This document shows positions 2,926-40,440 of a DNA stretch of 64,000 nucleotides, piece after piece (within the stretch, counting starts at the first letter, position 1; each line of letters starts with the position of its first letter). A program made the translations under genes and the position numbers. The notes under the pieces were generated by a model. It was not told the origin of the DNA, ran no database searches, and saw only the letters and a list, made by a program, of their open reading frames with translations. This DNA comes from Eledone cirrhosa (taxonomy: Eukaryota): NCBI GenBank assembly GCA_964016885.1, contig OZ024741.1:240188001-240252000 (forward strand), written 5' to 3'.

Positions 2926-3004
2926 AGATAATTCAACATGTGTTGCAACAATGAAACTATAACATCCATATAAAACTTGAAATAAGATTATATAAATATG
3001 TATA

Positions 3005-5089: not shown

Positions 5090-5650
5090 AATTATTGTTC
5101 AATCTCTTTGTTCTGAAGTTAATATTAATTATGTTAAAACAATATCTTACAGATTTACTGAGATTTAGTATATAAAATGAGATTATAAATTGGGATTAAA
5201 TAGAAACTTACCTCTTTAATAATTATATCATTGGTTATTCAGTGAGAATAGAAAGATGTATTGGTGTAGAAAGCTCCATTGTAAGTGCTGCTGTAATGGT
5301 GTGTGACAATGGCTGTATGTTGATAGAGTAGTGTAGCACGTCAGGCAGATAGTCTGCTGCTAGGATAGAGTTGTGTGTGTTATTGAAGTTGTATGTTTGT
5401 GGCAGTACATCCCTCTAATAATATTGTGTATGTATTTATCTTGAAATATGATGTTTGTTTACTGTTATCAATAACTATTTACATATATATAGATATATAT
5501 TTAAATAGCTACAATATTCTATATAGTTAAACATAACATGTTTGGTTTAATAACATCAGTAATGTCAATGCTTCTCTTTGTTAATGAATTCTGACTATGT
5601 TTTAGTGAGAATCTGATTGGCTAAATGACCTAAACAGAAGACCAATGACA
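5090..5650 (-). promoter_or_regulatory. Conserved promoter + non-coding exon 1 of unit 1 (donor GAG|GTAAGT at 5212/5211; CCAAT boxes 5616-5620 and 5642-5646)
   Basis: Block recurs almost unchanged upstream of all five units that have a 5' end. Consensus donor, inverted CCAAT pair, TGACGTG at 5343-5337. TSS not determinable. Confidence 0.75.
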
Positions 5651-5827
5651 TTTTCTCTTAAGTATTGATTAGCTTTTGTGAGGTGGAAGGTCTCGTATTT
5701 ATTAGGAAAGAGATGGTTTGACAATCATGCCTATCCCCAAACTAATAATACAATTAATAAATTACAATATCTATTTAATAACATTAATTAATTACAATAT
5801 TTTTCCCAATATTATTTACTACTAAAT

Positions 5828-5962
5828 AAGTTCAAATTCTAAGCTCTGCCTTTCATCCTTACGGGGTTGATAAAATAAAGTAACAGAAATAAACTGCATT
5901 TGATTTAATGGACTTTATCCACTTCCAAAAGTGTTGGCCTTCTGCATGAATCAGAAACCAAT
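5828..5962 (+). mobile_element. Degraded tRNA-derived SINE (gcctttcatccttacggggttgataaaataaag family); copies at ~14825-14957 and ~23460-23598
   Basis: Matches the body of the fuller SINE at 54277-54463. Confidence 0.65.
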
Positions 5963-6564
5963 GATATAAAGAAATTATTTTCTTGTTAAAACATAAAAAA
6001 TCTACTTTTGGCATTTTTACACTTCACCTTAAGTATAAAATCTTCACCTTAAATATAAAATCTTTAAAGGACATGGTAACCCATTTAAAATACTCCTATT
6101 TATTACACTCCATAACCTATAGACAATTAACTTTATGAATTATTATTGAACCACTGTAAATATTAGTAATTTTAAAACATGAGCCTCCAAAACAGTAGAT
6201 AACTGCAACAATGGTTAATAACTATGAATAATAGCTGAGAAAACTGAGTATATTACCCCTAATGATATTCACATTTTCCCATTTCTAAGGGTAATTTAAT
6301 CAATTTTCTCAAATATTATTTATTGGTTGACTGTTATTACAATTATTTTCTACATTCGTGATGCTGACATTTTCAGAGTCTCACATAGTAAATTATTTCA
6401 ACTACTAATTTAAAGAGATCTATAGTTTCCTTTATTAAGCCTTCTAGTTTTAAATAATGTATGTTGTTACAAAGTGTAGTTAATATAGAAGGTGTCTGTG
6501 TCTGTGATCATGTAATACTGAACAGTATATAACTTCTATTTGCTATGGCAATTCAATGAAGTAA

Positions 6565-6641
6565 TTATACATGTTTCACTGGTGTTTCTTCACTGGAATC
6601 CTTTGATGTAGATGTATCGTTGTTTTTATATATATTTTGAT
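6565..6641 (-). CDS. Unit 2 exon 4 (terminal coding exon, D-QNIYKNNDTSTSKDSSEETPVKHV*)
   Basis: Acceptor ttccag| at 6642-6643. Phase 1 matches exon 3. Open to TAA at 6567-6565. AATAAA at 6436-6431. Synonymous changes in paralogs. Confidence 0.8.
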
Positions 6642-6968
6642 CTGGAATTTAGATAGAAAATAATATCTTACACAATTATAAAGGGGACCATTCTATTATT
6701 AAATTAGGCAAGCATTCGTAATGACCATATATATATAAACATGACAAATTCCTTAATAATCAGATGGGCCAATGAAAGATTCATTCTTAACCGCAGAGAG
6801 TTTTATAAATTTGCTAAATATCAATATAAGGAAAAATGTACATTTTAGATGTTATCAAAATATAATTTTTTCTACTTTTGCCACAAGGTCAGCAATTACC
6901 ACAGTGAATTACTGATACTTTATTTTATCGACCCCTGAAAGTATAAAATAGCGAAAGTAGTTATTAAC

Positions 6969-7134
6969 CTGATATTCCTGGTAATTCTTCATAATGTTTC
7001 ATATCACCTTCATTCAATACACGTCTACTACTTCTCTTAGATGACATTGTATCTGATGTATAGTTACAAACTATAGGAGGATTATCTTCCACAGCATCAT
7101 CACTTGATGTCACCACAACAGGTTGACAATATTT
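6969..7134 (-). CDS. Unit 2 exon 3 (cytoplasmic, KYCQPVVV...HYEELPGIS)
   Basis: Acceptor caacag| at 7135-7136 (phase 0), donor CAG|GTTAAT. 166 nt. Same exon in units 2-6. Confidence 0.85.
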
Positions 7135-7297
7135 CTGTTGACAAACAAACCAGGAGAAATGTGAGGAGACATCAAACAATGCTAGTTACAATAAACATGT
7201 AGTTTACAATTTAATATTGTACTATATTATTGAAGATAAAACATTGTTTATCTTTTACATATAAAGTAGAGATAGAAAATATAATCTTTTCACTTAC

Positions 7298-9667
7298 TGG
7301 GGTAGGTTTTGGTAAAGTTCTTGACTGAACTGAAGCTTCATATTTATTCTGTAGCTGACCTTCTGAATAACATTCACTCTTTGATCTCTCAGAATATATA
7401 TTTCTTTTTATCATCTCTTCTGTATTCCTTGACATAGCAACAGGATTGTTAGACTGATACAACAATTGTTTCATCTCTGTTCTACCTTGGTATGCTGTAG
7501 TCTTTGTTGTAGTAGCTGTGTTATCTCTGTGTTTAATACATTTCATTATACACAGTGTTATAGAAACAACAATAGCCACTGATACTATTACTGCTGATGA
7601 CACAATGATAATAACCCATGTCATATGGACTCTACCTGAAGATTGTAAAGGTACACTTTTCAACATTGGTGATGTCTCATTACTAACAGCCAATACCAAA
7701 GTCACACTAGTTGTTGATGACTGAACTGGACTACCACTGTCTTTTACAACAAACTTTAGTTCATAACTTCCAGCATCATTTAGATAAACTTGTCTGGAGA
7801 ATGATAAAGCACCACTGTGTGAGTTCATAGTAAACAACTGTTTATTATTTCCTTGTATGATTCCATATGTGAGGAAAGCATTGTTTCCACTGTCACCATC
7901 AGATGATCTCAAAACTGTGATGTCACTCTTACTCTGGGGATGGTAGTGGACATTTAGGGTGTAAGGGTTAACACTAGGAAAGGTGAAATATGGAACATTG
8001 TCATTTTGATCTAAAATCTCAACAACAACATTGGCTGTGTCATTCAGAGATGGACTTCCATTATCTTTGACAAAAACCTCAAATTTATACACATCTTGTT
8101 TCTCTCTGTCTAATGACATGGTGGCTGAAATAAAGCCATAACTTGTGATCAGAAATGGTAGATTTGATTTTTCTTTATGTATCAGAGAATATGTGAGTTG
8201 TCCAGCAGATCCAAGGTCAGGGTCAGTGGCATTGACAAAACCAATAGGGAAGTCTTTATCTTTGTTTTCATAGGTCAGGAATTGGAAAGTATCTTTGGTA
8301 AATTGTGGTTGTACATCATTGATATCAGTCACTTGGATAGAGAGAGTTTTAACACTTTTAAGAGGTGGTAATCCTTTATCTTGACATGAGACAGGAATGT
8401 TATAGTGTCCTTGTGTTTCTCTGTCTACTGGTTTGTTTAGAATTATTTTATATTCTTTAGATCCCATTGACTGTAGTTTGAATGTATCATGTTTGATATC
8501 ACAGCTGACCTCTCCATTTTGTCCAACATCATTGTCAGTGACCATCACATAAGCAATGAAACTACCAACTTTGATTTTTTCAGACATGGTTCCTGAGTTA
8601 TAATTAAGAGCAGAAACATAATCTATATCAATAGATGGAGGGTTGTTGTGTTGATTGATAACATTTATCAGAACTGTTGCTATGGAACTGAATGGAGGGT
8701 TACCGCCGTCTCTGGCTTCTATAAATAATTCAAAGGAATTTTTTTCATTTAAGCTAGAAATTCTGGACAAAAATATTTTACCATCTTTTTTATTTAATTC
8801 AAAATATTTCTGTGCTAAAGCTGATGTTTTGGGACTGAAATGGAAAGTAATTTTACTGTTCGGTCCTAAATCTTTGTCTGTTACTGACAAATTAAGAATA
8901 GGTTTGGTTATATCATGAGTGGTTCTAATGGAAATATTATAAAGTGGTTTTGAAAATACAGGTGGATTATCATTCTCATCTTCCACAATAATCAGAACAT
9001 TTAACACACACTGTTTAGATGGGGAGCCTCCATCTTTAGCAATAACTTCTAAATTGTGTTTCTCTTTTATCTCTCTGTCTAATTTTTCTTTTAATAAAAT
9101 ATTTAATGAGGAAATACCATCAGCTCTTTTAGAAACTGACAAAGAAAATGCATCATTGGATTTTTTAAGTTTATATTCAATAAAAGAATTTTGGTAACTA
9201 ATGTCATTATCTATGGCATTTGGAATTGACTTTTTCATTCCTTTTCCATCTCCTTCCCTAAATTGCAAAGTGATTTGTTTTTTTGGAAACTCTGGTTCAT
9301 GGTCGTTAATGTCTTCTATTACTATTTTGACTTTTATAATTTTTGTAAAAGTTTCCACTTTCTTCATTATAATTTTCACTGTTCTAGAACATTCTTTGTT
9401 GAATGTACAGAGCTTCTCTGCATCCAGTGTCTGAGCAGTGTACAATTTACCTGTTTTGGTGATATTAAATAACTGTGCCACCTTTCGTTTAAATTGACTG
9501 AATATTATCAATTGTTGGTCAGATGGTTTAACATTGTCTAAAAGTTTAGAATCAGCAGCAATGTCTGCTACATATGTTCCTGGACTTCTCTCTTCTTCCA
9601 CATGGTAGGTAAGGTCTATGGTCAGAACACAGTGGACCATTGATAATACAATAGACGATAGTAACAT
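7298..9667 (-). CDS. PCDH: Protocadherin unit 2, large exon (signal peptide, 6 EC repeats, TM); spliced protein ~870 aa
   Basis: 818-aa ORF in track; true exon ends at CCA|GTAAGT (7298/7297), 790 codons. EC1 Cys-X5-Cys. TM WVIIIVSSAVIVSVAIVVSITLC. Acceptor at 9728-9729. Confidence 0.95.
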
Positions 9668-10225
9668 ATTGTTGTAGCAGTTGTGTTGGTACTGGATAAA
9701 AATGTCCTGATTAGGTAAGGAGTGAATCTAAAACAGAAATATATTTTATCAGTTATCATCATCTGACGTCAACATAAATCACACAAAGCTATATTATCTA
9801 TAAAAAGATACTATTACATAAACATATAGAAGTGGTTAAAGGATTATGTTCCTAATAAAATATAACATACTAAACTTGGATCGAAAAAAATCATTGTATA
9901 TATTTAAAAAAAATATATCCTTTAAAATCTTAAAGATCTGATTGAAGATCTAGAATCTGAAATTGCTCAAACAACATACTAGAGAGACTAATAACTCCAT
10001 TGCTGTTGTTGTTTAGCTCCATTGGTTCCAACAATGAGTGTTGCATTTGTTTGGACTTTGAAACAGTATCCCTAAAAAAGATTTCAGGAAGATTCAGCAT
10101 TCACAGTGTGACAAAGCTGTCCCTTTCAAATAAAGGTGCAACTAATTTTTGCCGGGATTTTTGATTGATACAAGTGTTTCATCTCTGTTCTACCTAGAAT
10201 GTTGTATTCTTTATTGCAGTAGCCA

Positions 10226-10610
10226 TCATCATCATCATCATTTCATTTTATGTCCGTTTTTTCCTGCTTGCAAGGGTGGGACGGGAACTGATTCTGGCTT
10301 GATTTCTACAGCTGGATGCCCTTCCTAACACCAACCTCATTTACAGTGAGTGCTGGGTGCTTTTTTCCCGTTGCGCCTACACGTCCACTTTACAGTGTGG
10401 GCTGGGTGCTTTTTTGCCATGGCACCTCCACGACCACTTTGCAATGGAATGATAGGGACCCCAGTCTTATCATTTCATTTCTACAGCTGAGTAAACTGGA
10501 GTAATCTGAAATAAAGTGTCTTGCTCAAAGAAACAACACATCACCCGGTCTGAGAATTGAACTCACAACCTTTCGATTGCAAAGCCAATGCTCTAACCAC
10601 TAAGCCATAT
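10226..10610 (-). mobile_element. tRNA-headed SINE with RTE-LINE-derived 3' tail, unit-2-specific insertion
   Basis: A box TGGCTTAGTGG and B box GTTCAATTC on minus strand. Tail matches the RTE 3' end at ~61165-61207. (GAT)n tail, short gcca duplication. Empty site in units 1 and 3. Confidence 0.8.
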
Positions 10611-14086: not shown

Positions 14087-14645
14087 AATTATTGTTCAAT
14101 TTCTTTGTTCTGAAGTTAATATTAAATATGTTAAAACAATATCTTACAGATTTACTAAGATTTAGTATATAAAATGAGATTATAAATTGGGATTAAATAG
14201 AAACTTACCTCTTTAATAATTATATCCTTGGTTATTCAGTGAGAATAGAAAGATGTATTGTTGTAGAAAGCTCCATTGTAAGTGCTGCTGTAATGGTGTG
14301 TGACAATGGCTGTATGTTGATGGAGTAGTGTAGCACGTCAGGCAGATAGTCTGCTGCTAGGATAGGGTTGTGTGTGTTATTGAAGTTGTATGTTTGTGGC
14401 AGTACATCCCTCTAATAATATTGTATATGTATTTATCCTTAAAGATGATGTTTGTTTACTGCTATCAATAACTATTTACATATATATAGATATATATTTA
14501 AATAGCTACAATATTCTATAGTTAAACATAACATGTTTGGTTTAATAACATCAGTAATGTCAATGTTTCTCTTTGTTAATGAATTCTGACTATGTTTTAG
14601 TGAGAATCTGATTGGCTAAATGACCTAAACAGAAGACCAATGACA
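14087..14645 (-). promoter_or_regulatory. Conserved promoter + non-coding exon 1 of unit 2 (donor at 14209/14208; CCAAT 14611-14615, 14637-14641)
   Basis: Near-identical to 5090-5650. Confidence 0.75.
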
Positions 14646-15561
14646 TTTTCGCTTAAGTATTGATTAGCTTTTGTGAGGTGGAAAGTCTCGTATTTATTAG
14701 GAAAGAGATGGTTTGACAATCATGCCTATCCCCAAACTAATAATACAATTAATAAATTACAATATCTATTTAATAACATTAATTAATTACAATATTTTTC
14801 CCAATATTATTTACTACTAAATAAGTTCAAATTCTAAGCTCTGCCTTTCATCCTTACGGGGTTGATAAAATAAAGTAACAGAAATAAACTGCATTTGATT
14901 TAATGGACTTTATCCACTTCCAAAAGTGTTGGCCTTCTGCATGAATCAGAAACCAATATGATATAAAGAAATTATTTTCTTGTTAAAACATAAAAAATCT
15001 ACTTTTGGCATTTTTACACTTCACCTTAAGTATAAAATCTTCACCTTAAACATAAAATCTTTAAAGGATGTGGTAACCCATTTAAAATATTCCTATTTAT
15101 TACACTCCATAACCTATAGTCAATTAACTTTATGAATTATTATTGAACCACTGTAAATATTAGTAATTTTAAAACATGAGCATCCAAAACAGTAGATAAC
15201 TGCAACAATGGTTAATAACTATGAATAATAGCTGGGAAAACTGAGTATATTACCCCTAATGATATTCACATTTTCCCATTTCTAAGGGTAATTTAGTCAA
15301 TTTTTTCAAATATTATTTATTGGTTGACTGTTATTACAATTATTTTCTACATTCGTGATGCTGACATTTTCAGAGTCTCACATAGTAAATTATTTCAACT
15401 ACTAATTTAAAGAGATCTATAGTTTCCTTTATTAAGCCTTCTAGTTTTAAATAATGTATGTTGTTACAAAGTGTAGTTAATATAGAAGGTGTCTGTGTCT
15501 GTGATCATGTAATACTGAACAGTATATAACTTCTATTTGCTATGGCAATTCAATGAAGTAA

Positions 15562-16311: not shown

Positions 16312-18687
16312 TGGAGTAGGTTTTGGTAAAGTTCTTGACTGAACTGAAGCTTCATATTTATTCTGTAGCTGACCTTCTGAATAACATTCACTCTTTGATC
16401 TCTCAGAATATATATTTCTTTTTATCATCTCTTCTGTATTCCTTGACATAGCAACAGGATTGTTAGACTGATACAACAATTGTTTCATCTCTGTTCTACC
16501 TTGGTATGCTGTAGTCTTTGTTGTAGTAGCTGTGTTATCTCTGTGTTTAATACATTTCATTATACACAGTGTTATAGAAACAACAATAGCCACTGATACT
16601 ATTACTGCTGATGATACAATGATAATAACCCATGTCATATGGACTCTACCTGAAGATTGTAAAGGTACACTTTTCAACATTGGTGATGTCTCATTACTAA
16701 CAGCCAATACCAAAGTCACACTAGTTGTTGATGACTGAACTGGACTACCACTGTCTTTTACAACAAACTTTAGTTCATAACTTCCAGCATCATTTAGATA
16801 AACTTGTCTGGAGAATGATAAAGCACCACTGTGTGAGTTCATAGTAAACAACTGTTTATTATTTCCTTGTATGATTCCATATGTGAGGAAAGCATTGTTT
16901 CCACTGTCACCATCAGATGCTCTCAAAACTGTGATGTCACTCTTACTCTGGGGATGGTAGTGGACATTTAGGGTGTAAGGGTTAACACTAGGAAAGGTGA
17001 AATATGGAACATTGTCATTTTGATCTAAAATCTCAACAACAACATTGGCTGTGTCATTCAGAGATGGACTTCCATTATCTTTGACAAAAACCTCAAATTT
17101 ATACACATCTTGTTTCTCTCTGTCTAATGACATGGTGGCTGAAATAAAGCCATAACTGGTGATCAGAAATGGTAGATTTGATTTTTCTTTATGTATCAGA
17201 GAATATGTCAGTTCTCCAGCAGATCCAAGGTCAGGGTCAGTGGCATTGACAAAACCAATAGGGAAGTCTTTATCTTTGTTTTCATAGGTCAGGAATTGGA
17301 ATGTATCTTTGGTAAACTGTGGTTGTACATCATTGATATCAGTCACTTGGATAGAGAGAGTTTTAACACTTTTAAGAGGTGGTAATCCTTTATCTTGACA
17401 TGAGACAGGAATGTTATAGTGTCCTTGTGTTTCTCTGTCTACTGGTTTGTTTAGAACTATTTTATATTCTTTAGATCCCATTGAATGTAGTTTGAATGTA
17501 TCATGTTTGATATCACAGCTGATCTCTCCATTTTGTCCAACATCATTGTCAGTGACCATCACATAAGCAATGAAACTACCAACTTTGATATCTTCAGAGA
17601 TGGTAGCTGTGTGGTCATTGATAGCAGAAACATAATCTATATCAATAGATGGAGGGTTGTTGTGTTGATTGACAATATTTATCAGAACTGTTGCTATGGA
17701 ACTGAATGGAGGGTTGCCTCCATCTCTGGCTTCTATAAATAATTCATAGGCTTTCTTTTTTCCTAAACTTGAATATTTATTTAAGAAAATCTTTCCAATG
17801 GTTTCATTTAATTGGAAATAACTTTTTGCAAGATCCGATGTCTTTGGACTGAAATGGAAAGTAATTTTACCATTTTCTCCAGAATCAGAATCTGTTACAG
17901 ATAAAATAATAATGGGTTTAGATTTGTGATGTGTACTTTGTATGGATATATTATATAGAGGTTTAGAAAATACTGGTGGGTTGTCATTCACATCTATTAT
18001 AGAGATATTTATATTTAAAATACCTTGTTTTGATGGTGAACCTCCATCTTTAGCTATGACCTGGAGTAAATATGTATCTTTGATTTCTCTGTCTAATGAT
18101 TCTTTTAAAACTATGTTAAGTGAAGAAATACCATCAGCTCTTTTCGAGACTGACAGAGAGAATGGTTCACCATTCTTGGATTTTAATTTATATTGTATTA
18201 ATGAGTTCTGAAAACCTACATCTTTGTCCATAGCATTTGGTAGTGATCTTTTTAAACCTTTGCTAATATCTTCACTAAACTGCATATTAACATTCTTTAG
18301 AGGAAACTCAGGTTGATGGTCATTGATGTCTTCTATTACTATTTTAATTTTTAATACTTTTGTAACACTTCTTCCTTTATTGACAACAACCTTCTCAGTT
18401 CTAGAACATTCTTTGTTAAATGAACAGAGTTTCTCTGCATCCAGTGTCTGAGCAGTGTACAGTTTACCTGTTTTCGTGATATTAAATAACTGTGCCACCT
18501 TTTGTTTAAATTGACTGAATGTTATCAATTGTTGGTCAGATGGTTTAACATTGTCTAAAAGTTTAGAATCAGCAGCAATGTCTGCTACATATGTTCCTGG
18601 ACTTCTCTCTTCTTCCACATGGTAGGTAAGGTCTATGGTCAGAACACAGTGGACCATTGATAATACAATAGACAATAAGAGTAACAT
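16312..18687 (-). CDS. PCDH: Protocadherin unit 3, large exon
   Basis: 792 codons to CCA|GTAAGT. Six cadherin repeats + TM. Acceptor at 18745-18746. Confidence 0.95.
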
Positions 18688-20094
18688 ATTGTTGTTGTTG
18701 TGTTGGTACTGGTTAAAAATGTCCTGATTAGGTAAGGAGTGAATCTAAAACAGAAATATATTTTATCAGACATCAACAGAAATCATACTATAAGCTATAA
18801 TTTTACATAAAAATACACAGAAATAATCATATTAAAAGATAACTGAAAGATATGTTATCTTTTCTTTATATGAATTTCGCATAAAAAAAAAGGTAGAAGA
18901 GAAAATCTTTTGGTTTAAGTTGAAGCAAGCTCATTGAAAAGCTTAAGAACGAAAAGGGAAGATATATGAAGGTTGATCTCAGAATATGTAATATTAAGAA
19001 GATAAGGTACTATAACATGTGGCAAGTTGTGTTGGAGAATTACTGTTTCCAACCAAAAGAAGGAAGGGAGTACTAATGGAAAATATAGAAATAGTTAAAG
19101 GATTATGTCCTTAATGAAATATAACATACTAAACTGGAATATGAAAAAATCAGTGTATACATTTAAAAAAATATATCCTTTAAATCTTAAAGATCTGATT
19201 GAAGATCTAGAATCTGTAATTGCTCAAACAACATACTAGAGAGACTAATAACTCCATTGCTGTTGTTGTTTAGCTCCATTGGTTCCAAAAATGATTGTAT
19301 TTGTTTGGACTTTGAAACAGTCTCCCTAAAAAAGATTTCAGGAAGATTCAGCATGTCAGTGTGTGACAAAGCTGCCACTTTCAAATACAGGTGCAACTAA
19401 TTTTTGCCGGGATTTTGATTGATACAATTGTTTCATTTCTGTTCTACCTTGGATGTTGTATTCTTTATTTTCAGTAGCCACTCATGAAATTAATAAGTAG
19501 GTGGTTGAGTATTCCACAGTACCTTTTATGGGTAGTCTGACAGTCGACTGCTCCTGTGCACCTGTCATCTGTGAAGTTTATCATCTTTATCAGCCTATCT
19601 GTGATCCTACTACATCTCCTGTGCATCCATTGTACAAACTTGTATCACATTATAGAATTCCTACCTACCCCTATTTTGCATATTGAGCATGGCCATTTTC
19701 CTGATGTAGCAGAATTTCATCTTATTTCCTACTTATTAAATCTTTAGTCATTGCTGATGTTTATTTTGAGGCCCTTCAATTCCAGGTTTTGTTCTGTCTG
19801 GAGCTTCTTCACTAGTTCTTTTATAGTTTAAGCGTTCATGGCTAGATTGTCTCTATACAGGAACTCCCACAGAATTTCTCTGTAATGGTTTTGAGGACTA
19901 TAATAAACTGGAGGAAGTTGATAACTGAACCCTAGTAGATTCCCAACTTCACACTAAATTCATCACTATACTCATCATCATCTCTCACCTTGCTGGGTCC
20001 ACTTTGATGGAGGGAATTAATTGGTTTCTCCCATCATTGAGTGGATATAGATTGCCTCAGATAATTTTGCCTTGTGTTGCAACAATGCAACTAT

Positions 20095-22723: not shown

Positions 22724-23281
22724 AATTATTGTTCAATCTCTTTGTTCTGAAGTTAATATTAAAAATGTTAAAACAATATCTGACAGATTTACTAAGATTT
22801 AGTATATAAAATGAGATTATAAAATGGGATTAAATAGAAACTTACCTTTTTAATAATTATATCATTGGTTATTCAGTGAGAATAGAAAGATGTATTGTTG
22901 TAGAAAGCTCCATTGTAAGTGCTGCTGTAATGGTGTGTGACAATGGCTGTATGTTGATAGAGTAGTGTAGCACGTCAGGCAGATAGTCTGCTGCTAGGAT
23001 AGGGTTGTGTGTGTTATTGAAGTTGTATGTCTGTGGCAGTACATCCCTCTAATATTGTGTATGTATTTATAATTAAAGATGATGTTTGTTTAGTGTTATC
23101 AATAACTATTTACATATATATAGATATATATTAAAATAGCTACACAATTCTATATAGTTAAACATAACATGTTTGGTTAAATAACATCAGTAATGTCAAT
23201 GTTTCTCTTTGTTAATGAATTCTGTCTATGTTTTAGTGAGAATCTGATTGGCTGAATGACCTAAACAGAAGACCAATGACA
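22724..23281 (-). promoter_or_regulatory. Conserved promoter + non-coding exon 1 of unit 3 (donor AAG|GTAAGT at 22846/22845; CCAAT 23247-23251, 23273-23277)
   Basis: Near-identical to 5090-5650. Confidence 0.75.
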
Positions 23282-24202
23282 TTTTCGCTTAAGTATTGAT
23301 TAGCTTTTGTGAGGTGGAAGGTCTCGTATTTATTAGGAAAGAGATGGTTTGACAATCATGCCTATCCCCAAACTAATAATACAATTAATAAATTACAATA
23401 TCTATTTAATAACATTAATTAATTACAATATTTTTCCCAATATTATTTACTACTAAATGAGTTCAAATTCTAAGATAAGCTCTGCCTTTCATCCTTACGG
23501 GGTTGATAAAATAAAGTAACAGAAATAAACTGCATTTGATTTAATGGACTTTATCCACTTCCAAAAGTGTTGGCCTTCTGCATGAATCAGAAACCAATAT
23601 GATATAAAGAAATTATTTTCTTGTTAAAACATAAAAAATCTACTTTTGGCATTTTTACACTTCACCTTAAGTATAAAATCTTCACCTTAAACATAAAATC
23701 TTTAAAGGATGTGGTAACCCATTTAAAATATTCCTATTTATTACACTCCATAACCTATAGTCAATTAACTTTATGAATTATTATTGAACCACTGTAAATA
23801 TTAGTAATTTTAAAACATGAGCCTCCAAAACAGTAGATAACTGTAACAATGGTTAATAACTATGAATAATAGCTGAGAAAACTGAGTATATTACCCCTAA
23901 TGATATTCACATTTTCCCATTTCTAAGGGTAATTTAGTCAATTTTCTCAAATATTATTTATTGGTTGACTGTTATTACAATTATTTTCTACATTCGTGAT
24001 GCTGACATTTTCAGAGTCTCACATAGTAAATTATTTCAACTACTAATTTAAAGAGATCTATAGTTTCCTTTATTAAGCCTTCTAGTTTTAAATAATGTAT
24101 GTTGTTACAAAGTATAGTTAATATAGAAGGTGTCTGTGTCTGTGATCATGTAATACTGAACAGTATATAACTTCTATTTGCTATGGCAATTCAATGAAGT
24201 AA

Positions 24203-24952: not shown

Positions 24953-27328
24953 TGGGGTAGGTTTTGGTAAAGTTCTTGACTGAACTGAAGCTTCATATTT
25001 ATTCTGTAGCTGACCTTCTGAATAACATTCACTCTTTGATCTCTCAGAATATATATTTCTTTTTATCATCTCTTCTGTATTCCTTGACATAGCAACAGGA
25101 TTGTTAGACTGATACAACAATTGTTTCATCTCTGTTCTACCTTGGTATGCTGTAGTCTTTGTTGTAGTAGCTGTGTTATCTCTGTGTTTAATACATTTCA
25201 TTATACACAGTGTTATAGAAACAACAATAGCCACTGATACTATTACTGCTGATGATACAATGATAATAACCCATGTCATATGGACTCTACCTGAAGATTG
25301 TAAAGGTACACTTTTCAACATTGGTGATGTCTCATTACTAACAGCCAATACCAAAGTCACACTAGTTGCTGATGACTGAACTGGACTACCACTGTCTTTT
25401 ACAACAAACTTTAGTTCATAACTTCCAGCATCATTTAGATAAACTTGTCTGGAGAATGATAAAGCACCACTGTGTGAGTTCATAGTAAACAACTGTTTAT
25501 TATTTCCTTGTATGATTTCATATGTGAGGAAAGCATTGTTTCCACTGTCACCATCAGATGCTCTCAAAACTGTGATGTCACTTTTACTCTGGGGATGGTA
25601 GTGGACATTTAGGGTGTAAGGGTTAACACTAGGAAAGGTGAAGTATGGAACATTGTCATTTTGATCTAAAATCTCAACAACAACATTGGCTGTGTCATTC
25701 AGAGACGGACTTCCATTATCTTTGACAAAAACCTCAAATTTATACACATCTAGTTTCTCTCTGTCTAATGACATGGTGGCTGAAATAAAGCCATAACTGG
25801 TGATCAGAAATGGTAGATTTGATTTTTCTTTATGTATCAGAGAATATGTGAGTTGTCCAGCAGATCCAAGGTCAGGGTCAGTGGCATTGACAAAACCAAT
25901 AGGGAAGTCTTTATCTTTGTTTTCATAGGTCAGGAATTGGAATGTATCTTTGGTAAACTGTGGTTGTACATCATTGATATCAGTCACTTGGATAGAGAGA
26001 GTTTTAACACTTTTAAGAGGAGGTAATCCTTTATCTTGACAGGAGACAGGAATGTTATAGTGTCCTTGTGTTTCTCTGTCTACTGGTTTATTTAGAATTA
26101 TTTTATATTCTTTAGATCCCATTGAATGTAGTTTGAATGTATCATGTTTGATATCACAGCTGACCTCTCCATTTTGTCCAACATCATTGTCAGTGACCAT
26201 CACATAAGCAATGAAACTACCAACTTTAATATCTTCAGAAATGGTAGCTGTGTGGTCATTGATAGCAGAAACATAATCTATATCAATAGATGGAGGGTTG
26301 TTGTGTTGATTGACAATATTTATCAGAACTGTTGCAATGGAACTAAATGGAGGGTTGCCTCCATCTCTGGCTTCTATAAATAATTCATAGGTTTTCTTTT
26401 TTCCCAAACTTGAATATTTATTTAAGAAAATCTTTCCACTAGTTTCATTTAATTGGAAATAACTTTTTGCAAGATCCGATGTCTTTGGACTGAAATGGAA
26501 AGTAATTTTACCATTTTCACCAGAATCAGAATCTGTTACAGATAAAATAATAATGGGTTTAGATTTGTGATGTGTACTTTGTATGGATATATTATATAGA
26601 GGTTTAGAAAATACTGGTGGGTTGTCATTCACATCTATTATAGAGATATTTATATTTAAAATACCTTGTTTTGATGGTGAACCTCCATCTTTAGCTATGA
26701 CCTGTAGTAAATATGTATCTTTGATTTCTCTGTCTAATGATTCTTTTAAAACTATGTTAAGTGAAGAAATACCATCAGCTCTTTTCGAGACAGACAGAGA
26801 GAATGGTTCGCCATTCTTGGATTTTAATTTATATTGTATTAATGAGTTTTGAAAACCAACATCTTTGTCTATGGCATTTGGTAGCGATCTTTTTGAACCT
26901 TTGCGATCATCTTCACCAAACTGTATGTTGACTTGCTTCGTAGGAAACTCAGGTTTATGATCATTGATGTCTTCTATTACTATTTTAATTTTTAGTATTT
27001 TTGTAACACTTGTTCCTTTATTAACAACAACCTTCACAGTTCTAGAACATTCTTTGTTAAATGTACAGAGTTTCTCTGCATCCAGTGTCTGAGCAGTGTA
27101 CAGTTTACCTGTTTTCGTGATATTAAATAACTGTGCCACCTTTCGTTTAAATTGACTGAATGTTATCAATTGTTGGTCAGATGGTTTAACATTGTCTAAA
27201 AGTTTAGAATCAGCAGCAATGTCTGCTACATATGTTCCTGGACTTCTCTCTTCTTCCACATGGTAGGTAAGATCTATGGTCAGAACACAGTGGACCATTG
27301 ATAATACAATAGACAATGACAGTAACAT
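24953..27328 (-). CDS. PCDH: Protocadherin unit 4, large exon
   Basis: 792 codons to CCA|GTAAGT. Acceptor at 27386-27387. Confidence 0.95.
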
Positions 27329-29109
27329 ATTGTTGCTGAAGTGTTGGTCTTGGTTAAAGACGTCCAGATATGTTAAGGATTGAATCTAAAACAGAAGTTT
27401 AAAACATATAATAATAATTGAAACATCAGAAATATAGACAAGAAAAGAAAATGTATTGATTAAAGCACAAGTTAATTGTTTAGTTTCAACATGCTATCAC
27501 TGAAGAATTAGTTGCTGTTGATTTTGGACCTCTGTGAATCCAATCAGTGAATGTGAAATTATTTTGATAAGTGGAACATTCTTTGTGGAAATGGCTGAGC
27601 TTTCCAGAAACACATGTTTCCTTAACTTAGTTCAAAGGGATATTCTCCAGGACACATTATATGACAAGCCTAGTCCTTTGATTTACATGTACAACTCATT
27701 TGGACTAGGGCAACATGAAATAAAGTTTTTTACTCCAGCACAATGATGCTGAATTAAATATCCTTAACACTGAACTACTTTCACTAAAAATTAGCATAGC
27801 ATGCTAATTGTCATATAAATAATATCCAATAACGTAATTGGTTCTTTTATATCATTAATGATATTTCATGAGATGACTAAATATACTGAGTAGTGGGGAT
27901 AGGAAAAGAGAAACAGAGTGTTAGGGATGAGAGCATGATGGAAGGGAGTTAGGTAGCCACATGGTAGCTGTGGGTAAGGAAATTAAATAGAAACAACATA
28001 AGAAGAGGAAATGTAAGTGCAAACATTATACATTCTAGTCTGGAGATATTCAACAATGATGTGTTTGGCTCATATTTTGCTATAACAGCATGATATGGAA
28101 AGGGAGGTAGAGTGATAGAAGGGTGACAGGGTGATGGAAGAGGATGTGATAGATGTCAGTCATGAGTGAAAGAAATAGGAGTAATGTGAGGGAGAGAGTG
28201 ATTGATATGTGATTATGAGAGAGTAAAGATGAAAGGGAGAACAATAAATAGCTGGGGGCAGGGAAACGTAATAGGAATGATAGCTAAAAGACTCAAATAC
28301 AGATATTAATCACAGTGTGGGTGGTAAAAGTGGAAGATGATGGAGACAGAATCAGCCTGTTTTCTATTTGCCATGGAGACAGTATCAAACTGCCTGCCAT
28401 GGACAACCATATGTAAAATAACTATTACATCTGTAACAAAGGTTGATGCAATGTAGAAAGGTCACTCTTATCTCTGGCTGACAATGCCTGATACAATCAG
28501 TTGCCATTACACCCCAACAATGTCCCTGTCCCCTAATAAATTAGCTAAGACAAAATGGGGATACTAGGTTGTTTCTATAAAACACTCTACCATGGCATAT
28601 AATGCAATCGAGACATTAACATTCCACAGTTGTCCTTATGGAGCAATACAGAGCAACACCTTTGTCTTGATATTAGAGGGAAAGTATATATTAAAATGAT
28701 ATTTCTTACCACCCTAGAGTCTATATAGACTAGAAAAGAGTAGTAGTATTGTATAACAAGTGCAGGTAAACTTTTATGGGGTGGTCCCGATTGGAAATGT
28801 TTTAATGTCTTGCAAGGCAAGGTAAATATAAAATGCAACCATGATTATACAAGGTTAAAGAAGCTGCTTATTTTAATCACTTTAATGCTTTTTCATCATA
28901 AATGATAAAAGTTAGAAAGAGAAAGAAGGAAAGCGTAGTGTAGTCGTTAGGCACATTGTTACAGTGGACATCTGATGGTGTTTGAAGAGATGCATGAGTG
29001 TAGACATAAGAATATTTGACTTTAACTGCTGAAGCATGATTGATGCAGAGAAAATGTAATTGGCTTAATTAAGTGGCCAAAGTTGCATAGTGGCTCTATA
29101 TAACTTGAT

Positions 29110-32424: not shown

Positions 32425-32990
32425 TGTGAATTATTGTTCAATCTCTTTGTTCTCAAGTTAATATTAAATATGTTAAAATAATATCTTACAGATTTACTGA
32501 GATTTAGTATATAAAATGAGATTATAAAATGGGATTAAACAGAAACTTACCTCTTTAATAATTATATCATTGGTTATTCAGTGAGAATAGAAAGATGTAT
32601 TGTTGTAGAAAGCTCCATTGTAAGTGCTGCTGTAACGGTGTGTGACAATGGCTGTATGTTGATGGAGTAGTGTAGCACGTCAGGCAGATAGTCTGCTGCT
32701 AGGATAGGGTTGTGTGTGTTATTGAAGTTGTATGTTTGTGGCAGTACATCCCTCTAATAATATTGTGTATGTATTTATCCTTAAAGATGATGTTTGTTTA
32801 CTGCTATCAATAACTATTTACATATATATAGATATATATTTAAATAGCTACAATATTCTATATAGTTAAACATAACATGTTTGGTTTAATAACATCAGTA
32901 ATGTCAATGTTTTTCTTTGTTAGTGATTTCTGTCTATGTTTTAGTGAGAATTTGATTGGTTGAATTACCTAAACAGAAGACCAATGACAG
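32425..32990 (-). promoter_or_regulatory. Conserved promoter + non-coding exon 1 of unit 4 (donor at 32551/32550; CCAAT 32955-32959, 32981-32985)
   Basis: Near-identical core. Similarity to units 1-3 stops right after accaatga. Confidence 0.78.
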
Positions 32991-33944
32991 ATGTTCCTTT
33001 TCATATTGATTTGACATACCAAAATACCTTTAATTTATTCAAAGCGAGATTATATGATGTTCATCCATTCTTATATAGATTACTGATAATAATTATCTCT
33101 ATATTCCATTATATCATCCCTAAACTTCAATGTCAGTTTTCTTATTAAAAATTATCTATATTCATATTTTACTTGGAATGGTTCTATTTTGTCACAAGAA
33201 ACTATTTGACAATGTGATGTCAGATTAAATTAGAAATGTTTTTTATAGCTAAAATTAAATGAAATAAAAAAGCTATAATTACTGATATTTGTGAAATATT
33301 TATATCTTTAAATAGCAACATAATAATTGTTTCTACCTTAGGCACAAATAGCAACTTAATAATAATAATTGTTTCTACATTCGACAAAAGGCTAGCAATT
33401 TGAAGGGAGGGGAAAGTCTGCTAAATCGATCCCAGTGCGTTAAAATAAGAAGACACCTGTCTCATCCTGGTTTGGAGAAATGCAAGGTGGCCTCAGCAAC
33501 AGATTATTTTGTTCTGTTGATTCCGTCAATACAGTAGAAAGAGATAAATCCTCAGACCAATGGAACAATGTGAAATAAAGTGTCATGCTCAAAGACAACA
33601 TTTCACTTGGGGCAAGCAGAAATCAAACTCACGACCTTACAATCCTGAACTGAACATCATAACCAGTAAGCCAAACACCGCCACTGACATTTTATTTTAT
33701 CAACCCTCTAATGATAAAAAGCAAACCTAACCTCAGCAGGATATGAACTCAGAACATAATGAACTGTCACTAAAACATTTTGTTTGGCACTCAACAATTC
33801 TACCAATCCCCTGCACTTAATAAAATAAATCATGGGAAAGGAAAAAATTGGACAGAGAAGCCTGTGAGGAATCAAACTACACATCTCTCGTATGACAAGT
33901 GAGCATGCTTAACGAATACATCAAAGGGTTCCTGACATAATAGT

Positions 33945-34237
33945 AATAATAAATGAGATACGAACCACTAGCATGGAAGATAAAACATTTGTGGGCAATG
34001 AAAATGGTTAAGGTCATCCCAGTTTTAGACAGGGCGCTTGGTACAGTGAGCACCAGAATTGAAACTATTTTTTTAAAATCAAGGCCAATATCAGGGGTGG
34101 GGTCCTTACAGAAAACAACACTTCTTGGAACTGCTAGAATATTTAGAAAAGTGATTGACAATTGAATGTGTCACTGCAGTCAACTGGCATCACCACCAAC
34201 AAATGCTGTGTGACAAGTGAATAATAATAATAATAAC
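33945..34237 (+). mobile_element. R4/Dong-like non-LTR element 3' end (restriction-like endonuclease C-terminus) in a TAA tract
   Basis: RYEPLAWKIKHLW...VKVIPV...ALGTV...LQKTTLLGTARIFRKV, flanked by TAA repeats. Confidence 0.65.
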
Positions 34238-35014
34238 TTCTGGATTATTTTACCAATCTTACAACTACATGGTATATCACCTAATACTAATGAGTTTATA
34301 GTCTTTTGATGCTTCAGGTAGGGACTTGGGGGAAAATCATACAGAAGGAAGCATAAGCAAAAGATAATAATTTATAACATTAGTACAATATGAAATATTT
34401 AAAGGAAGAGTGATTATCATCCATTTTACATGTGTTTTTCCATGCTTGCATAGGCTGGATGAGATCTTTTGTGACAGGTCTGTTTGATTAAATACACACC
34501 CATTATGTCACTGGTACTTTATTTTAACAGCCTCAATAAAAGGAAACACTCAGTAGATCTTAGTTAGATTTTGGTTTTGCTTTTTATGCCTTATAAGTAA
34601 ATTACCATTCAGGAAAGCAGTTAATAAAATTGATTTTACTTCTCTTCCAGGAATTGCAGTGTTGTGCCTATGTTAGAATTGTAAAATAATATCTGACCAA
34701 CAATAGAATCATTTTTTTGTTTTAAAAATAGACACTGTGTCATGAAGTATAGATGTATTCATCTAGTTAGGCATAGAACTTTAAACATACTAAAAAAGAA
34801 AATAAAGAAGGTTAATTGACTCAAAGGAAAAAAGTACTAATTTCCAGAACTTAGTTTACTTAAAGAAACATTGCTCATTTGTTGACACCTGTTTTTATAT
34901 TGCTGTTCAGACCATATAATAAAGAATATGTATGTTGATAGTGTATGCATTACTGATTTATCTATATTTTATATTCACATACAGAGAGCTTGTTATGTCA
35001 CTTGAATAGTATAA

Positions 35015-35091
35015 TTATACATGTTTCACTGGTGTTTCTTCACTGGAATCTTTCGATGTAGATGTATCGTTGTTTTTATATATATTTTGAT
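35015..35091 (-). CDS. Unit 5 exon 4 (terminal coding exon)
   Basis: ttacag| acceptor. Conserved island in poorly alignable flanks. TCA>TCG and AAG>AAA synonymous changes. Confidence 0.82.
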
Positions 35092-35253
35092 CTGTAATTT
35101 AGATACAAAATTAGACTTTTGGCAATATATTAAACTTATTAATGTATTTATAAAAAAAAACTCCCTTATGAATTATATTCATTTTAAATAGCTGTATTTA
35201 TCTACATTTAAGACAATAAAACAAAATATAATATAAGCAAAGTAGATATTAAC

Positions 35254-35419
35254 CTGATATTCCTGGTAATTCTTCATAATGTTTCATATCACCTTCATTC
35301 AATACACGTCTACTACTTCTCTTAGATGACATTGTATCTGATGTATAGTTACAAACTATAGGAGGATTATCTTCCACAGCATCATCACTTGATGTCACCA
35401 CAACAGGTTGACAGTATTT
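35254..35419 (-). CDS. Unit 5 exon 3 (cytoplasmic, ...HYEELPGIS)
   Basis: 166 nt, conserved splice sites; absent from the ORF track. Confidence 0.85.
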
Positions 35420-35602
35420 CTGTTGACAAACAAACCAAGAGAAATGTGGGGAGACATCAAATAATCCTAGTTACAATAAACATGTAGTTTACAATTTAAT
35501 ATTGGACTATATTATTGAAGATAAAACATTGTTAAAATAATCTTATTGTTTATCTTTTATGTTTAAAGTAAAGATAGAAAAAATTTTAATCTTTTCACTT
35601 AC

Positions 35603-37978
35603 TGGGGTAGGTTTTGGTAAAGTCCTTGACTGAACTGAAGCTTCATATTTATTCTGTAGCTGACCTTCTGAATAACATTCACTCTTTGATCTCTCAGAAT
35701 ATATATTTCTTTTTATCATCTCTTCTGTATTCCTTGACATAGCAACAGGATTGTTAGACTGATACAACAATTGTTTCATCTCTGTTCTACCTTGGTATGC
35801 TGTAGTCTTTGTTGTAGTAGCTGTGTTATCTCTGTGTTTAATACATTTCATTATACACAGTGTTATAGAAACAACAATAGCCACTGATACTATTACTGCT
35901 GATGATACAATGATAATAACCCATGTCATATGGACTCTACCTGAAGATTGTAAAGGTACACTTTTCAACATTGGTGATGTCTCATTACTAACAGCCAATA
36001 CCAAAGTCACACTAGTTGTTGATGACTGAACGGGACTACCACTGTCTTTTACAACAAACTTTAGTTCATAACTTCCAGCATCATTTAGATAAACTTGTCT
36101 GGAGAATGATAAAGCACCACTGTGTGAGTTCATAGTAAACAACTGTTTATTATTTCCTTGTATGATTTCATATGTGAGGAAAGCATTGTTTCCACTGTCA
36201 CCATCAGATGCTCTCAAAACTGTGATGTCACTCTTACTCTGGGGATGGTAGTGGACATTTAGGGTGTAAGGGTTAACACTAGGAAAGGTGAAATAGGGAA
36301 CATTGTCATTTTGATCTAAAATCTCAACAACAACATTGGCTGTGTCATTTAGAGATGGACTTCCATTATCTTTGACAAACACTTCAAATTTATACACATC
36401 TAGTTTCTCTCTGTCTAATGACATGGTGGCTGAAATAAAGCCATAACTGGTGATCAGAAATGGTAGATTTGATTTTTCTTTATGAATCAGAGAATATGTG
36501 AGTTGTCCAGCAGATCCAAGGTCAGGGTCAGTGGCATTGACAAAACCAATAGGGAAGTCTTTATCTTTGTTTTCATAGGTCAGGAATTGGAATGTATCTT
36601 TGGTAAACTGTGGTTGTACATCATTGATATCAGTCACTTGGATAGAGAGAGTTTTAACACTTTTAAGAGGTGGTAATCCTTTATCTTGACATGAGACAGG
36701 AATGTTATAGTGTCCTTGTGTTTCTCTGTCTACTGGTTTGTTTAGAACTATTTTATATTCTTTAGATCCCATTGACTGCAGTTTGAATGTATTATGTTTG
36801 ATATCACAGCTGACCTCTCCATTTTGTCCAACATCATTGTCAGTGACCATCACATAAGCAATGAAACTACCAACTTTGATCTTCTCAGAAATGGTTCCTG
36901 AGTTATAATTGGTTGCAGAAACATAATCTATATCAATAGATGGAGGGTTGTTGTGTTGGTTTATAACATTTACCAGAACTGTTGCTATAGAACTATGAGG
37001 AGGGCTACCTCCATCTCTGGCCTCAATAAATAATTCATAGGTTTTCTTTTTTCCTAAACTTGAATATTTATTTAAGAAAATGTTTCCAGTAGCTTCATTT
37101 AATTGGAAATAACTTTTTGCTAGATCTGATGTCTTTGGGCTGAAATGGAAAGTAATTTTACCATTTTCACCAGAATCAGCATCTGTTACAGATAAAACAA
37201 TAATGGGTTTAGATTTGTGATGTGTACTTTGTATGGATATATTATATAGAGGTTTAGAAAATACTGGTGGGTTGTCATTCTCATCTATTATAGAGATATT
37301 TATATTTAAAATACCTTGTTTTGATGGTGAACCTCCATCTTTAGCTATGACCTGGAGTAAATATGTATCTTTGATTTCTCTATCTAATGATTCTTTTAAA
37401 ACTATTTTAAGAGAAGAAATACCATCTGCTCTTTTAGAGACTGACAGAGAGAATGGTTCTCCATTCTTGGATTTTAATTTATACTGTATTAATGAGTTTT
37501 GAAACCCTACATCCTTGTCCATGGCATTTGGTATTGATCTTCTTGTACCTTTGCTAATATCTTCACCAAACTGTATGTTGATGTTTTTTATAGGAAACTC
37601 TGGTTGATGGTCATTGATGTCTTCTATTACTATTTTGATTTTTATGATTTTTGTGAATGTTTCCACTTTCTTTATGATAATTTTAACAGTTCTAGAACAT
37701 TCTTTGTTAAATGTACAGAGCTTCTCTGCATCCAGTGTCTGAGCAGTGTACAGTTTACCTGTTTTAGTGATATTAAATAAGTGTGCCACCTTTCGTTTGA
37801 ATTGACTGAATGTTATCAATTGTTGGTCAGATAGTTTAACATTGTCTAAAAGTTTAGAATCAGCAGCAATGTCTGCTACATATGTTCCTGGACTTCTCTC
37901 TTCTTCCACATGGTAGGTAAGGTCTATGGTCAGAACACAGTGGACCATTGATAATACAATAGATAATGACAGTAACAT
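35603..37978 (-). CDS. PCDH: Protocadherin unit 5, large exon
   Basis: 792 codons to CCA|GTAAGT. Acceptor tttctgtttcag| at 38068-38069. Confidence 0.95.
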
Positions 37979-38554
37979 ATTGTTGTTGATATTGTGATGG
38001 TACTTGTTAAATATATCCGGATAAATTGATACCGGTGAAAGATGTCGAGCTATGCTGAAGTTTGAATCTGAAACAGAAATTTATGTCTATTAAACATATA
38101 TTATTAGACATTTTAATAGATTGTAACACAAAATAATATATGCATGGTTTCAGAATTGTATTATTATAAAAATTAAGAAAATATTAATCAATGGTTCATT
38201 TTCGAAAACTATATGTAACTGTAATGTTATGATTTGAAAGTCCTTACCCTGAATAATTTGTAATGCTACTTGCAGTGTTGGACATTTAGGTTCTCATACA
38301 TTATTCCCTTACAGGAAACAAAGCAGACAACCTCATATTGGAGACTTGGTCTTCTAGAAATGTTTTAAAGTGCTATATCTACTCTCAAGAATAGTACTAT
38401 TAGTTTCCACAAATGTCTTTTCTAACACATCTATATAAGGTGACACTGTTACAACATCCTAACATTTAATGGTCTCCACTATCGCCTCATACTGTAACCA
38501 GACAAACATCCAATACAGTCATTTTCTCTTTTACCTGTCTTCTCTTATCATCTG

Positions 38555-38587
38555 TTTACCCGGGCGAAGCTGGGTACGCCAGCTAGT
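38555..38587 (+). mobile_element. Helitron-like 3' terminus
   Basis: GC hairpin tacccgggcgaagctgggta followed by CTAG|T at 38583-38587; 5' end not identified. Confidence 0.55.
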
Positions 38588-38691
38588 TCATATTTAAGCT
38601 AGTGTGTGAAATATAACTTAAAAGTCCTTACAGCATATTTTGATGGAAGGTTTTTAGATAAATATTAATACTTTAACATAAACAGCTTTAA

Positions 38692-38896
38692 CCCTCTAGC
38701 ATTTAAACCGGCTGTAGCCGGCCAGAATTCGCTCACCTCTTTCTGTTCAAACCGGCTGTAACTAGCTGCTCATACATATGTTAAGGTATTATTCTCAAAA
38801 TAAATATCAAAATCTCATAGATTCGATATTATGTGAGATAAAGCCTTTACCATGAAAGTATAATAGTATATATAGAATAATGTAAATGCTAAAGGG
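38692..38896. mobile_element. piggyBac-type MITE
   Basis: TIRs ccctctagcattta / taaatgctaaaggg, flanked by TTAA on both sides (38688-38691, 38897-38900). Confidence 0.8.
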
Positions 38897-39879
38897 TTAA
38901 ATAGTTATCCAAAGTATTTAGCTTTAATACAAACAACAACTGATATATGAATATGAATACCTCCATGTATTTCTAGAATGTATTTCTAAAGCATGAAAAC
39001 ATGTTTTATATTATCAGCCTGAAGAAATGGACATTGTTTAATGCATATGGAATAATGGGATTATATTAGAAAGATGAAGATGAATAATATAATGTGAATG
39101 TTGGGGAATCTGAGAAACAGATGTAAATGTAATAGTTCAGTTCAAGTGAATATTTAAAGTAACAAAACAGATTAATGTAAACAGCAAATATGAAATCAAC
39201 CTTAAAGTAAAGTAAATTATAATCTCCAATCTTAAGTTTAATTTCCATATATTTGAAATTAAGCCCATATTTCAACAATGCAATATAAACACTTTTTCCA
39301 ATAAAAATTAAAATACTGAAAAATATGATAGAAAAATTTAAATTAAAGCTATATGGAAATAAATAAACTTAATAGTACATATTACAATTATTTAAATGCA
39401 GATATGTTTTAAAAGGAAACACAGAGTATAAATGATATATTCAATATTATAAAAAATCCAGAGATGGTCTTTCACGTCATATTATTCTCTACAACATGGC
39501 GTCATTTCTACATTTTTCCATGTCCACCATTCTCATTAACCCAAATCTACAACACATCATTAGCTCATCAGTGCTAACGCTCTTTACACTGTTACTACAT
39601 ATGATCACAATGTAGCATATTAATTCATATTTTGTATCATTATATTTTAACATTATACCATCTACAACATCTAGACACATTCATTACAACAAAACCAAAC
39701 ACACACAACAATACTATGGACTTTTCTCCATCGTTGCTAATCCAAATATGTAACATATATCTAGATATTAATAATTTTGTTTCAATGGAATACAGTCTCA
39801 ATATTAAACATTTTAACCAACATCAGCCAATTAATTGTGATATAAAACAATATGGACAACATTACTGAAAAAATATGTC

Positions 39880-40440
39880 TAAATTATTGTAAATCTCTTT
39901 GTTCTCAAGTTAATATTAAATATGTTAGAACAATATCTTACAGATTTACTAAGATTTAGTATATAAAATGAGATTATAAAATGAGATTAAATAGAAACTT
40001 ACCTCTTTAATAATTATATCATTGGTTATTCAGTGAGAATAGAAAGACGTATTGTTGTAGAAAGCTCCATTGTAAGTGCTGCTGTAATGGTGTGTGACAA
40101 TGGCTGTATGTTGATGGAGTAGTGTAGCACGTCAGGCAGATAGTCTGCTGCTAGGATAGGGTTGTGTGTGTTATTGAAGTTCTATGTTTGTGGCAGTACA
40201 TCCCTCTAATAATATTGTGTATGTATTTATCCTTAAAGATGATGTTTGTTTACTGTTATCAATAACTATTTACATATATATAGATATATATTTAAATAAC
40301 TACAATATTCTATATAGTTAAACATAACATGTTTGGTTTAATAACATCAGTAATGTCAATGTTTCTCTTTGTTAGTGATTTCTGTCTATGTTTTGGTGAG
40401 AATCTGATTGGTTGAATGACCTAAACGGAAGACCAATGAT
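39880..40440 (-). promoter_or_regulatory. Conserved promoter + non-coding exon 1 of unit 5 (donor at 40003/40002; CCAAT 40407-40411, 40433-40437)
   Basis: Near-identical core. Similarity ends just beyond the distal CCAAT. Confidence 0.78.

Follow-up and report, generated by a model that had tools for sequence, protein, structure and literature searches.

The 64,000-nt stretch of the Eledone cirrhosa genome analysed here (GCA_964016885.1, contig OZ024741.1, positions 240,188,001 to 240,252,000; hereafter the window, with positions counted from its first letter and features on the minus strand unless stated otherwise) raises the question why successive protocadherin (Pcdh) genes are each preceded by practically the same non-coding block, and what that block does. 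In the window there are five protocadherin reading frames, on the minus strand, plus one truncated copy; it forms the upstream end of sub-array A, in which 30 intact protocadherin genes lie head-to-tail on one strand over 275 kb (C2:239.95-240.23 Mb). The products of these genes probably serve neurons in recognising one another. An earlier note on this DNA had described the block as a promoter/leader cassette and as a candidate invertebrate analogue of the promoter element of vertebrate clustered protocadherins, while mentioning gene conversion as another possible cause of its uniformity. We consider it probable, though by no means certain, that the block supplies each gene with its likely promoter, a non-coding exon and the start of an intron, and that it has been equalised by repeated gene conversion around a short core likely under selection.

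All five blocks listed in the earlier note were recovered: copy 1 at 5090..5670 (in front of gene 26 of the 30, and comprising the likely promoter, non-coding exon 1 and ~120 bp of intron 1), copy 2 at 14087..14665 (donor G at 14208, CCAAT words at 14609-14617 and 14635-14643), copy 3 at 22724..23301 (22845; 23245-23253 and 23271-23279), copy 4 at 32429..33011 (32550; 32953-32961 and 32979-32987) and copy 5, that of the first intact gene of the array, at 39882..40463 (40002; 40405-40413 and 40431-40439). As had been claimed, they differ by few substitutions (2.3-4.5%), which also applies to copies 4 and 5 (3.0%), whose flanks have diverged. A search of the 3 Gb genome with the block, in which 40 of 50 candidates were scored, returned 30 full-length copies (87-100%), all on one strand and all in sub-array A, where blocks and genes alternate 1:1; no full-length match outside array A was found among the scored candidates, the remaining 10 being low-complexity pieces of 56-117 bp. 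The double-CCAAT pattern occurs exactly 30 times genome-wide (control 0). The cassette ahead of every gene is borne out for the entire array (30/30). The block is AT-rich and poor in CpG (1 and 3 in the two blocks counted), and a search of Rfam with it gave no match at E<=0.1.

The genes of array A share one plan: a non-coding exon 1 that ends at a GTAAG donor within the block is separated by an intron of 1.9-6.9 kb from a large exon 2, which encodes the signal peptide through the start of the cytoplasmic part. Own exons 3 and 4 were identified in 29/30 genes, exon 4 being altered in one of these. In gene 11, at C2:240.05 Mb, exon 4 is broken after a few codons, which results in a different, shorter tail. 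For gene 26, exon 1 would occupy 5212..5465 (its 3' end following from the donor, its 5' end being an estimate), intron 1 lies at 1661..5211 (3551 nt), and exon 2 at 1..1660 (ATG at 1600) extends beyond the end of the window; the splice signals were as claimed (donor GT at 5211, acceptor AG at 1662-1661, exon 2 from 1660). We infer that exon 1 is spliced to exon 2 and that transcription starts within the block. The donor is apparently used in a related species, as three contigs from run X1 (assembled contigs of guessed RNA from another organism) depart from the genome at the donor of copy 4 (32549) and continue, after the shared GT, with TCAATC, like the exon-2 starts of the array. The joint of exons 2 and 3 (7134/7298, CT..AC) occurs in X1 and in none of X2-X4, which are runs of unknown kind. 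In addition, 13 homologous proteins (10 from Argonauta and 3 others) begin at or near the predicted methionine and end in the predicted exon 3 tail, most of them also in that of exon 4. Candidate transcription starts, by what we take to be an initiator word, lie near 5386 (aligning with TCAGT in sub-array B) and near 5463 (behind a TATA-rich spacer). On the intron side of the donor the X1 contigs have no depth at all, and between 32705 and 32754 (which corresponds to about 5366-5415 of copy 1) their depth drops, a profile that was not used as evidence, since contigs cannot show start or level.

Several elements within the block are shared by nearly all copies, and two other sets of genes served for comparison, namely 33 from the neighbouring sub-array B and 17 from the distant sub-array C. 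The earlier note had placed a sharp end of identity just past the distal CCAAT box; the step is indeed there (p-distance 0.058 at 5611-5650 vs 0.32 at 5651-5700), but the true upstream limit of conservation is an AATCAAT word (5664..5670; presumably Onecut/Cut-like), some 20-30 nt past that box, where AAATCAAT is found exactly or with one mismatch in 29/30 copies. On the intron side the block fades gradually (0.065, 0.115, 0.22, 0.25). The two opposed CCAAT boxes, 21 nt apart as reported in 29/30 copies, are a distal one (5642..5646, plus strand), which is altered by one base in the last gene of the array, and an invariant proximal one (5616..5620, 30/30). The distal box matches RRCCAATSR, which we take to be the extended NF-Y word and which both boxes fit; with this consensus and its paired boxes the array has a putative NF-Y promoter, at which NF-Y would bind the CCAAT pair. 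The X1 contigs cover both boxes with no listed change, their match ending 2 nt beyond the distal one. In the whole window 24 CCAAT words occur against 8.8 expected, an excess exaggerated by the duplications, from which no claim of significance was drawn. In an AT/TATA-rich spacer (5451..5550) the copies are 4-5% apart in the genome; the X1 contigs bridge it with sequence that cannot be aligned. An ATTAAA within the block (5546-5551) was considered as a poly(A) signal and dropped because the X1 contigs continue through it, and a conserved hairpin in exon 1 was likewise rejected (folding no better than shuffles, z -0.55 to +1.9 in 5 leaders).

Further towards the donor, the TGACGTG reported earlier (5337..5343, about -130 from the donor) is present in 30/30 copies. 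At its position 32/33 B blocks, as well as the nearest single paralogue of A, carry TGACTCA, and it is therefore likely, judging from these sequences, that the CRE-like (cAMP response element-like) form was derived from an AP-1-like one. Also within the predicted exon 1 lies a 24-bp core motif (5303..5326), common to two sub-arrays and to single genes. With at most one mismatch it has 82 matches in the genome (control 1), of which 77 fall within C2:239.14-240.23 Mb on the Pcdh strand (A 30, B 45, single genes 2) and 5 elsewhere. In the 30 copies 47 of the 50 columns at 5301-5350 are invariant, and since the motif has moreover been kept in sub-array B, whose proteins are just 60% identical to those of A, a short core around it appears likely to be under selection. 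Read on the opposite strand the motif presumably resembles TALE-class (Pbx/Meis) sites, and as RNA (A/C-rich) we would liken it to splicing enhancers. The CCAAT pair, in contrast, does not stand as an element of the family at large, being limited to A (extended word in 30/30 A, 0/33 B and 0/15 C blocks, the donors of 15 of the 17 C genes having been located); it is the 24-bp motif that is most widely shared. An upstream open reading frame of 14 codons (5235..5279) has a strong start context and its ATG is present in 30/30 copies, but no function is claimed for it, because AT-rich leaders contain ATGs by chance. In copy 4 an A-to-G difference on the transcribed strand (32598; 5259 in copy 1; 41% of X1 contig depth) changes ATA to ATG within this frame, which is compatible with a species difference and with RNA editing alike. 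The consensus of sub-array B has an upstream reading frame of 15 codons that begins within the core motif.

Sub-array B (C2:239.26-239.67 Mb), with its 45 core-motif matches, also has a homogenised block, with a TCAGT word at -180 and the TGACTCA at -130, while its upstream region is CT/GA-rich, unlike that of A. Its divergence amounts to 0.16-0.19 in extracellular cadherin (EC) domains 2 and 3, to about 0.02 from EC4 to the tail, and to 0.007-0.07 in the block from -350 to the donor. Sub-array C (C2:252.35-252.52 Mb) follows the same pattern less sharply. A profile built from the A block had no match there; the leader of C is unrelated (CAG/CAA repeats, ATGs just ahead of the donor) and homogenised chiefly within 100 nt of the donor. 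Three further single Pcdh genes are preceded by more diverged leaders. Just downstream of array A (C2:239,947,050-229), where no intact gene adjoins, a diverged leader has CCAAT words as well as a donor; it may be what is left of a lost gene or may serve as an alternative first exon.

What keeps the block uniform can be judged from the divergence along the genes of array A (mean p-distance over the 435 pairs of 30 copies). The block (0.057) and EC1 (0.067) are moderately close, EC2 (0.195) and EC3 (0.154) are far apart, and the values then fall over EC4 (0.030), EC5 (0.017) and EC6 (0.013) to the transmembrane segment (TM) and tail (0.009), with flanks of the block at 0.22-0.30 on the intron side and 0.32-0.46 upstream. 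This is not confined to constrained positions: four-fold sites are 0.33 and 0.32 apart in EC2-3 and 0.012-0.055 from EC4 to the tail, and in intron 2 the final 100 nt just 0.037. The block is closer than EC2-EC3 in 10/10 pairs of the window, as the earlier note stated, and in 424 of the 435 pairs of the array; within the gene the greatest likeness is found elsewhere, EC4-tail being closer still in 433. By their EC2-3 regions the genes divide deeply into two classes (8 and 22 genes), interspersed along the array, with 31% amino-acid difference and a four-fold distance of 0.51 across classes (176 pairs), and all 30 EC2-3 proteins are distinct. The block takes no notice of these classes (0.059 across them, 176 pairs, vs 0.055-0.058 within). 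Of 120 listed homologues 14 were aligned. In EC2-3, three Argonauta proteins go with class I, six are nearer to class II and one takes an intermediate place, whereas in EC4-tail the grouping is strictly by species (TM and tail 0.013 within vs 0.130 between). The EC2-3 lineages must therefore predate the species split, with the EC4-tail having been homogenised later. The two classes, ancient and shared with Argonauta, are candidate adhesion-specificity groups.

Gene conversion operates in array A. For the block itself it is likely as well: the trees of block, EC2-3 and EC4-tail mutually reject one another, the four-gamete test is violated by 222 of the 435 informative pairs of sites in the block, and eight X1 alleles in the block (8 of 16 checked) are absent from all 30 copies, which is weak, contigs not being genes. 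Block identity does not decay with distance along the array (rho -0.01). The alternative that the earlier note left standing hence turns out to be the better-supported cause of the identity, given the EC-wise divergence, the tree conflict and the species-wise EC4-tail, and the uniformity of the cassette is presumably due mostly to conversion. Concerted evolution of tandem families makes copies more alike within than between species, in tracts that span introns and silent sites. Array A differs from the usual case in being patchy, with an old trans-species EC2-3 module left untouched.

Three other accounts of the block may be set against this. That it is a dispersed repeat or transposon fragment lying in the array by chance, which the earlier note had named as a refutation if unlinked to Pcdh, has nothing but the repetition itself in its favour and its probability is negligible, since the genome-wide search placed 30 of the 40 scored matches in the array at full length, the other 10 were low-complexity, the double-box pattern returned only the 30 copies, and diverged homologues stand ahead of other Pcdh genes. 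A recent whole-gene duplication, or strict purifying selection over 560 bp, would produce identity with no conversion at all. Copies 1-3 of the window do have long flanks in common, and a burst at 8-14 Ma (million years ago) in one octopod Pcdh group is reported in PMC9795677. Yet flanks are 0.22-0.46 apart, the AT spacer is uniform in the genome and unalignable in X1, the eight X1 alleles occur in none of the copies, and the EC2-3 classes are older than the Argonauta split, by which this account is largely refuted; we hold it to be very improbable. Somewhat less so, but still improbable, is that the CCAAT-bearing half belongs to the 3' end or boundary of the previous gene, with starts elsewhere or read-through. 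The stop codon of the previous gene lies 333-2029 bp from the distal CCAAT box (median 556, 29 intervals), X1 contigs join the CCAAT region to exon 1, and Pcdh read-through fusions are mentioned in PMC9712504. However, AATAAA signals stand between stop and block in 28/29 intervals, the 3' untranslated regions ahead of the blocks have diverged (0.40) where the block has not, both boxes match the extended NF-Y word, the diverged leader downstream of the array retains CCAAT in a similar context, and a contig over two genes is no proof of a single transcript.

A more far-reaching view, and one closer to the earlier note, is that the equal promoters constitute a device dedicated to stochastic choice, competing for shared distant enhancers such that few members are active per neuron. 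The interchangeable promoters within a tight head-to-tail array, the 30 different EC2-3 proteins, and the confinement of variation to EC2-3 (the specificity domains in vertebrate clustered protocadherins) would all suit such a device. On the other hand, a consensus scan with a CTCF core word (<=2 mismatches) found no CTCF-like site in 30 A, 33 B and 15 C blocks, CpG is scarce, and conversion alone yields still higher identity at silent coding sites, so that we judge the device unlikely. Octopus neurons each express ~21 Pcdh genes, ubiquitous in some cases and enriched by cell type in others (PMC9712504), which weighs against the device and yet does not decide on enhancer competition or chance choice.

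Some observations weigh against the promoter, leader and conversion reading itself. That the CCAAT boxes are better conserved than their spacer is weakly backed (1/10 vs 9/21 variable sites, p=0.07), and the TGACGTG site reads TGACATG in 11 X1 contigs. The evidence for starts consists of assembled contigs, X1 being just guessed RNA of a foreign organism, and the junction 5212-1660 is not among the joints listed (15 of 196). Conversion of the block is deduced from one genome plus contigs, and the tree test comprised 2000 replicates on star-like trees.

With conversion as the favoured cause, an ordinary promoter and leader would have been duplicated along with each gene and then held equal, conversion being tolerated where copies should match (promoter, EC1 and EC4-tail) and purged in EC2-EC3. 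The members of A would, as an outcome, respond to the same transcription factors and form one regulatory class, and sub-arrays A, B and C would each be a separate class. Neurons would then differ, if they do, through chance firing of equal promoters, through array position or through gene-specific flanks, and not through CTCF-anchored choice. Read-through interference between neighbours is possible too, because the previous stop codon is so near to the distal box. One might go further and suppose that octopods have rebuilt the vertebrate variable/constant design without constant exons or CTCF, with conversion equalising promoter, leader and tail so that EC2-3 alone varies, each sub-array having its own promoter type (the CCAAT pair in A, absent from B and C) on the shared 24-bp motif, and chance firing or read-through exclusion among promoters that follow the preceding gene at about 0.5 kb giving each neuron a random barcode; this is a tentative idea, which we think rather doubtful, if less so than the enhancer-competition device.

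How far the likeness to vertebrates goes can be stated more precisely. The elements of vertebrate clustered protocadherins, as covered in PMC7811963 and PMC4978886, are likewise conserved near each 5' end with cluster-specific flanks, and conversion there spares EC2-EC3 and is strongest in EC5-EC6 (PMC4978886); the sparing of EC2-3 is shared by array A. The proposed analogy stands for the shared 5' element (30/30) and fails on the CTCF-like site, the position and the constant exons. Unlike the vertebrate conserved sequence element, the A block has no CTCF-like site, contains CGCT only scattered (8/30 A blocks), and is AT-rich and CpG-poor; the vertebrate element lies ~200 bp upstream of the ATG of the variable first exon, whereas the A block is 2-7 kb away behind a non-coding exon, and homogenisation covers hundreds of bases instead of a single short motif. 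Vertebrate variable exons are spliced to constant exons. Such exons were sought here and rejected, as every gene has its own tail exons. Each gene being a complete duplicate down to its last exons, splicing from variable to constant parts is absent; the two families are not orthologous. CTCF and cohesin are reported in squid (PMC9023564).

Among invertebrates, the chelicerate sDscam genes (PMC4835542) are a neuronal recognition family with an own promoter per tandem unit, as in array A, so that for the Pcdh promoter array a counterpart outside the vertebrates is already known. These are Ig-family genes whose variable cassettes are spliced to common exons, whereas array A consists of whole cadherin genes in which the common part is equalised by conversion. 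Whole-gene Pcdh sub-arrays of coleoids, with suggested gene conversion, have been published (Albertin et al. 2022, PMC9068888, as far as its accessible text extends), and array A resembles them in its six-EC protein, its head-to-tail multi-exonic whole genes and its conversion; the promoter, the leader exon and the domain-level conversion map are what the present analysis adds to that part of the work. In the literature searched (titles and abstract starts, with key earlier works outside the reach of the search) no cephalopod Pcdh promoter or leader exon was found. The array-specific cassette is real and apparently undescribed, its novelty being probable and not certain.

The other features of the window complete the picture. 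Gene 27 has its exon 2 at 7298..9727 (signal peptide, EC1-EC6, TM and cytoplasmic start; EC2-3 of class I), exon 3 at 6969..7134 and the coding part of exon 4, which terminates at the stop codon, at 6565..6641; in intron 3 a repeat fragment with an acceptor-like site (6901-6934) could serve as a cryptic exon. Exon 2 of genes 28, 29 and 30 (16312..18744, 24953..27385 and 35603..38067) is of class II in EC2-3 in all three, and a 5'-truncated gene copy (43365..44719) has no block upstream. Pfam assigns Cadherin_2 and five Cadherin stretches (six EC) to the array protein, of which the PDB matches include protocadherins, and the closest named relatives are Argonauta protocadherins (82-87%), those of Octopus being lower. 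A family search located further sub-arrays on the same contig. Upstream of array A lie a tandem repeat with units of roughly 48 bp (50869-51569; offsets about 95 bp) and a LINE-like (long interspersed nuclear element-like) element with a reverse transcriptase (RVT_1) on the minus strand (61169-63622).

Cephalopod neurons choose among 150-290 protocadherin genes, and the block supplies defined cis-elements for that question, namely the CCAAT pair, the site resembling those of basic leucine zipper (bZIP) factors, and the 24-bp leader motif at 77 places in the region. A direct prediction is co-regulation by sub-array. The conversion pattern of vertebrates, in which EC2-EC3 are spared, has evolved again in octopods, and distance-based dates of Pcdh expansion (such as 8-14 Ma) may be too young. 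A consequence for expression studies is that no short read derived from the 5' end or the tail can be traced to one particular gene.

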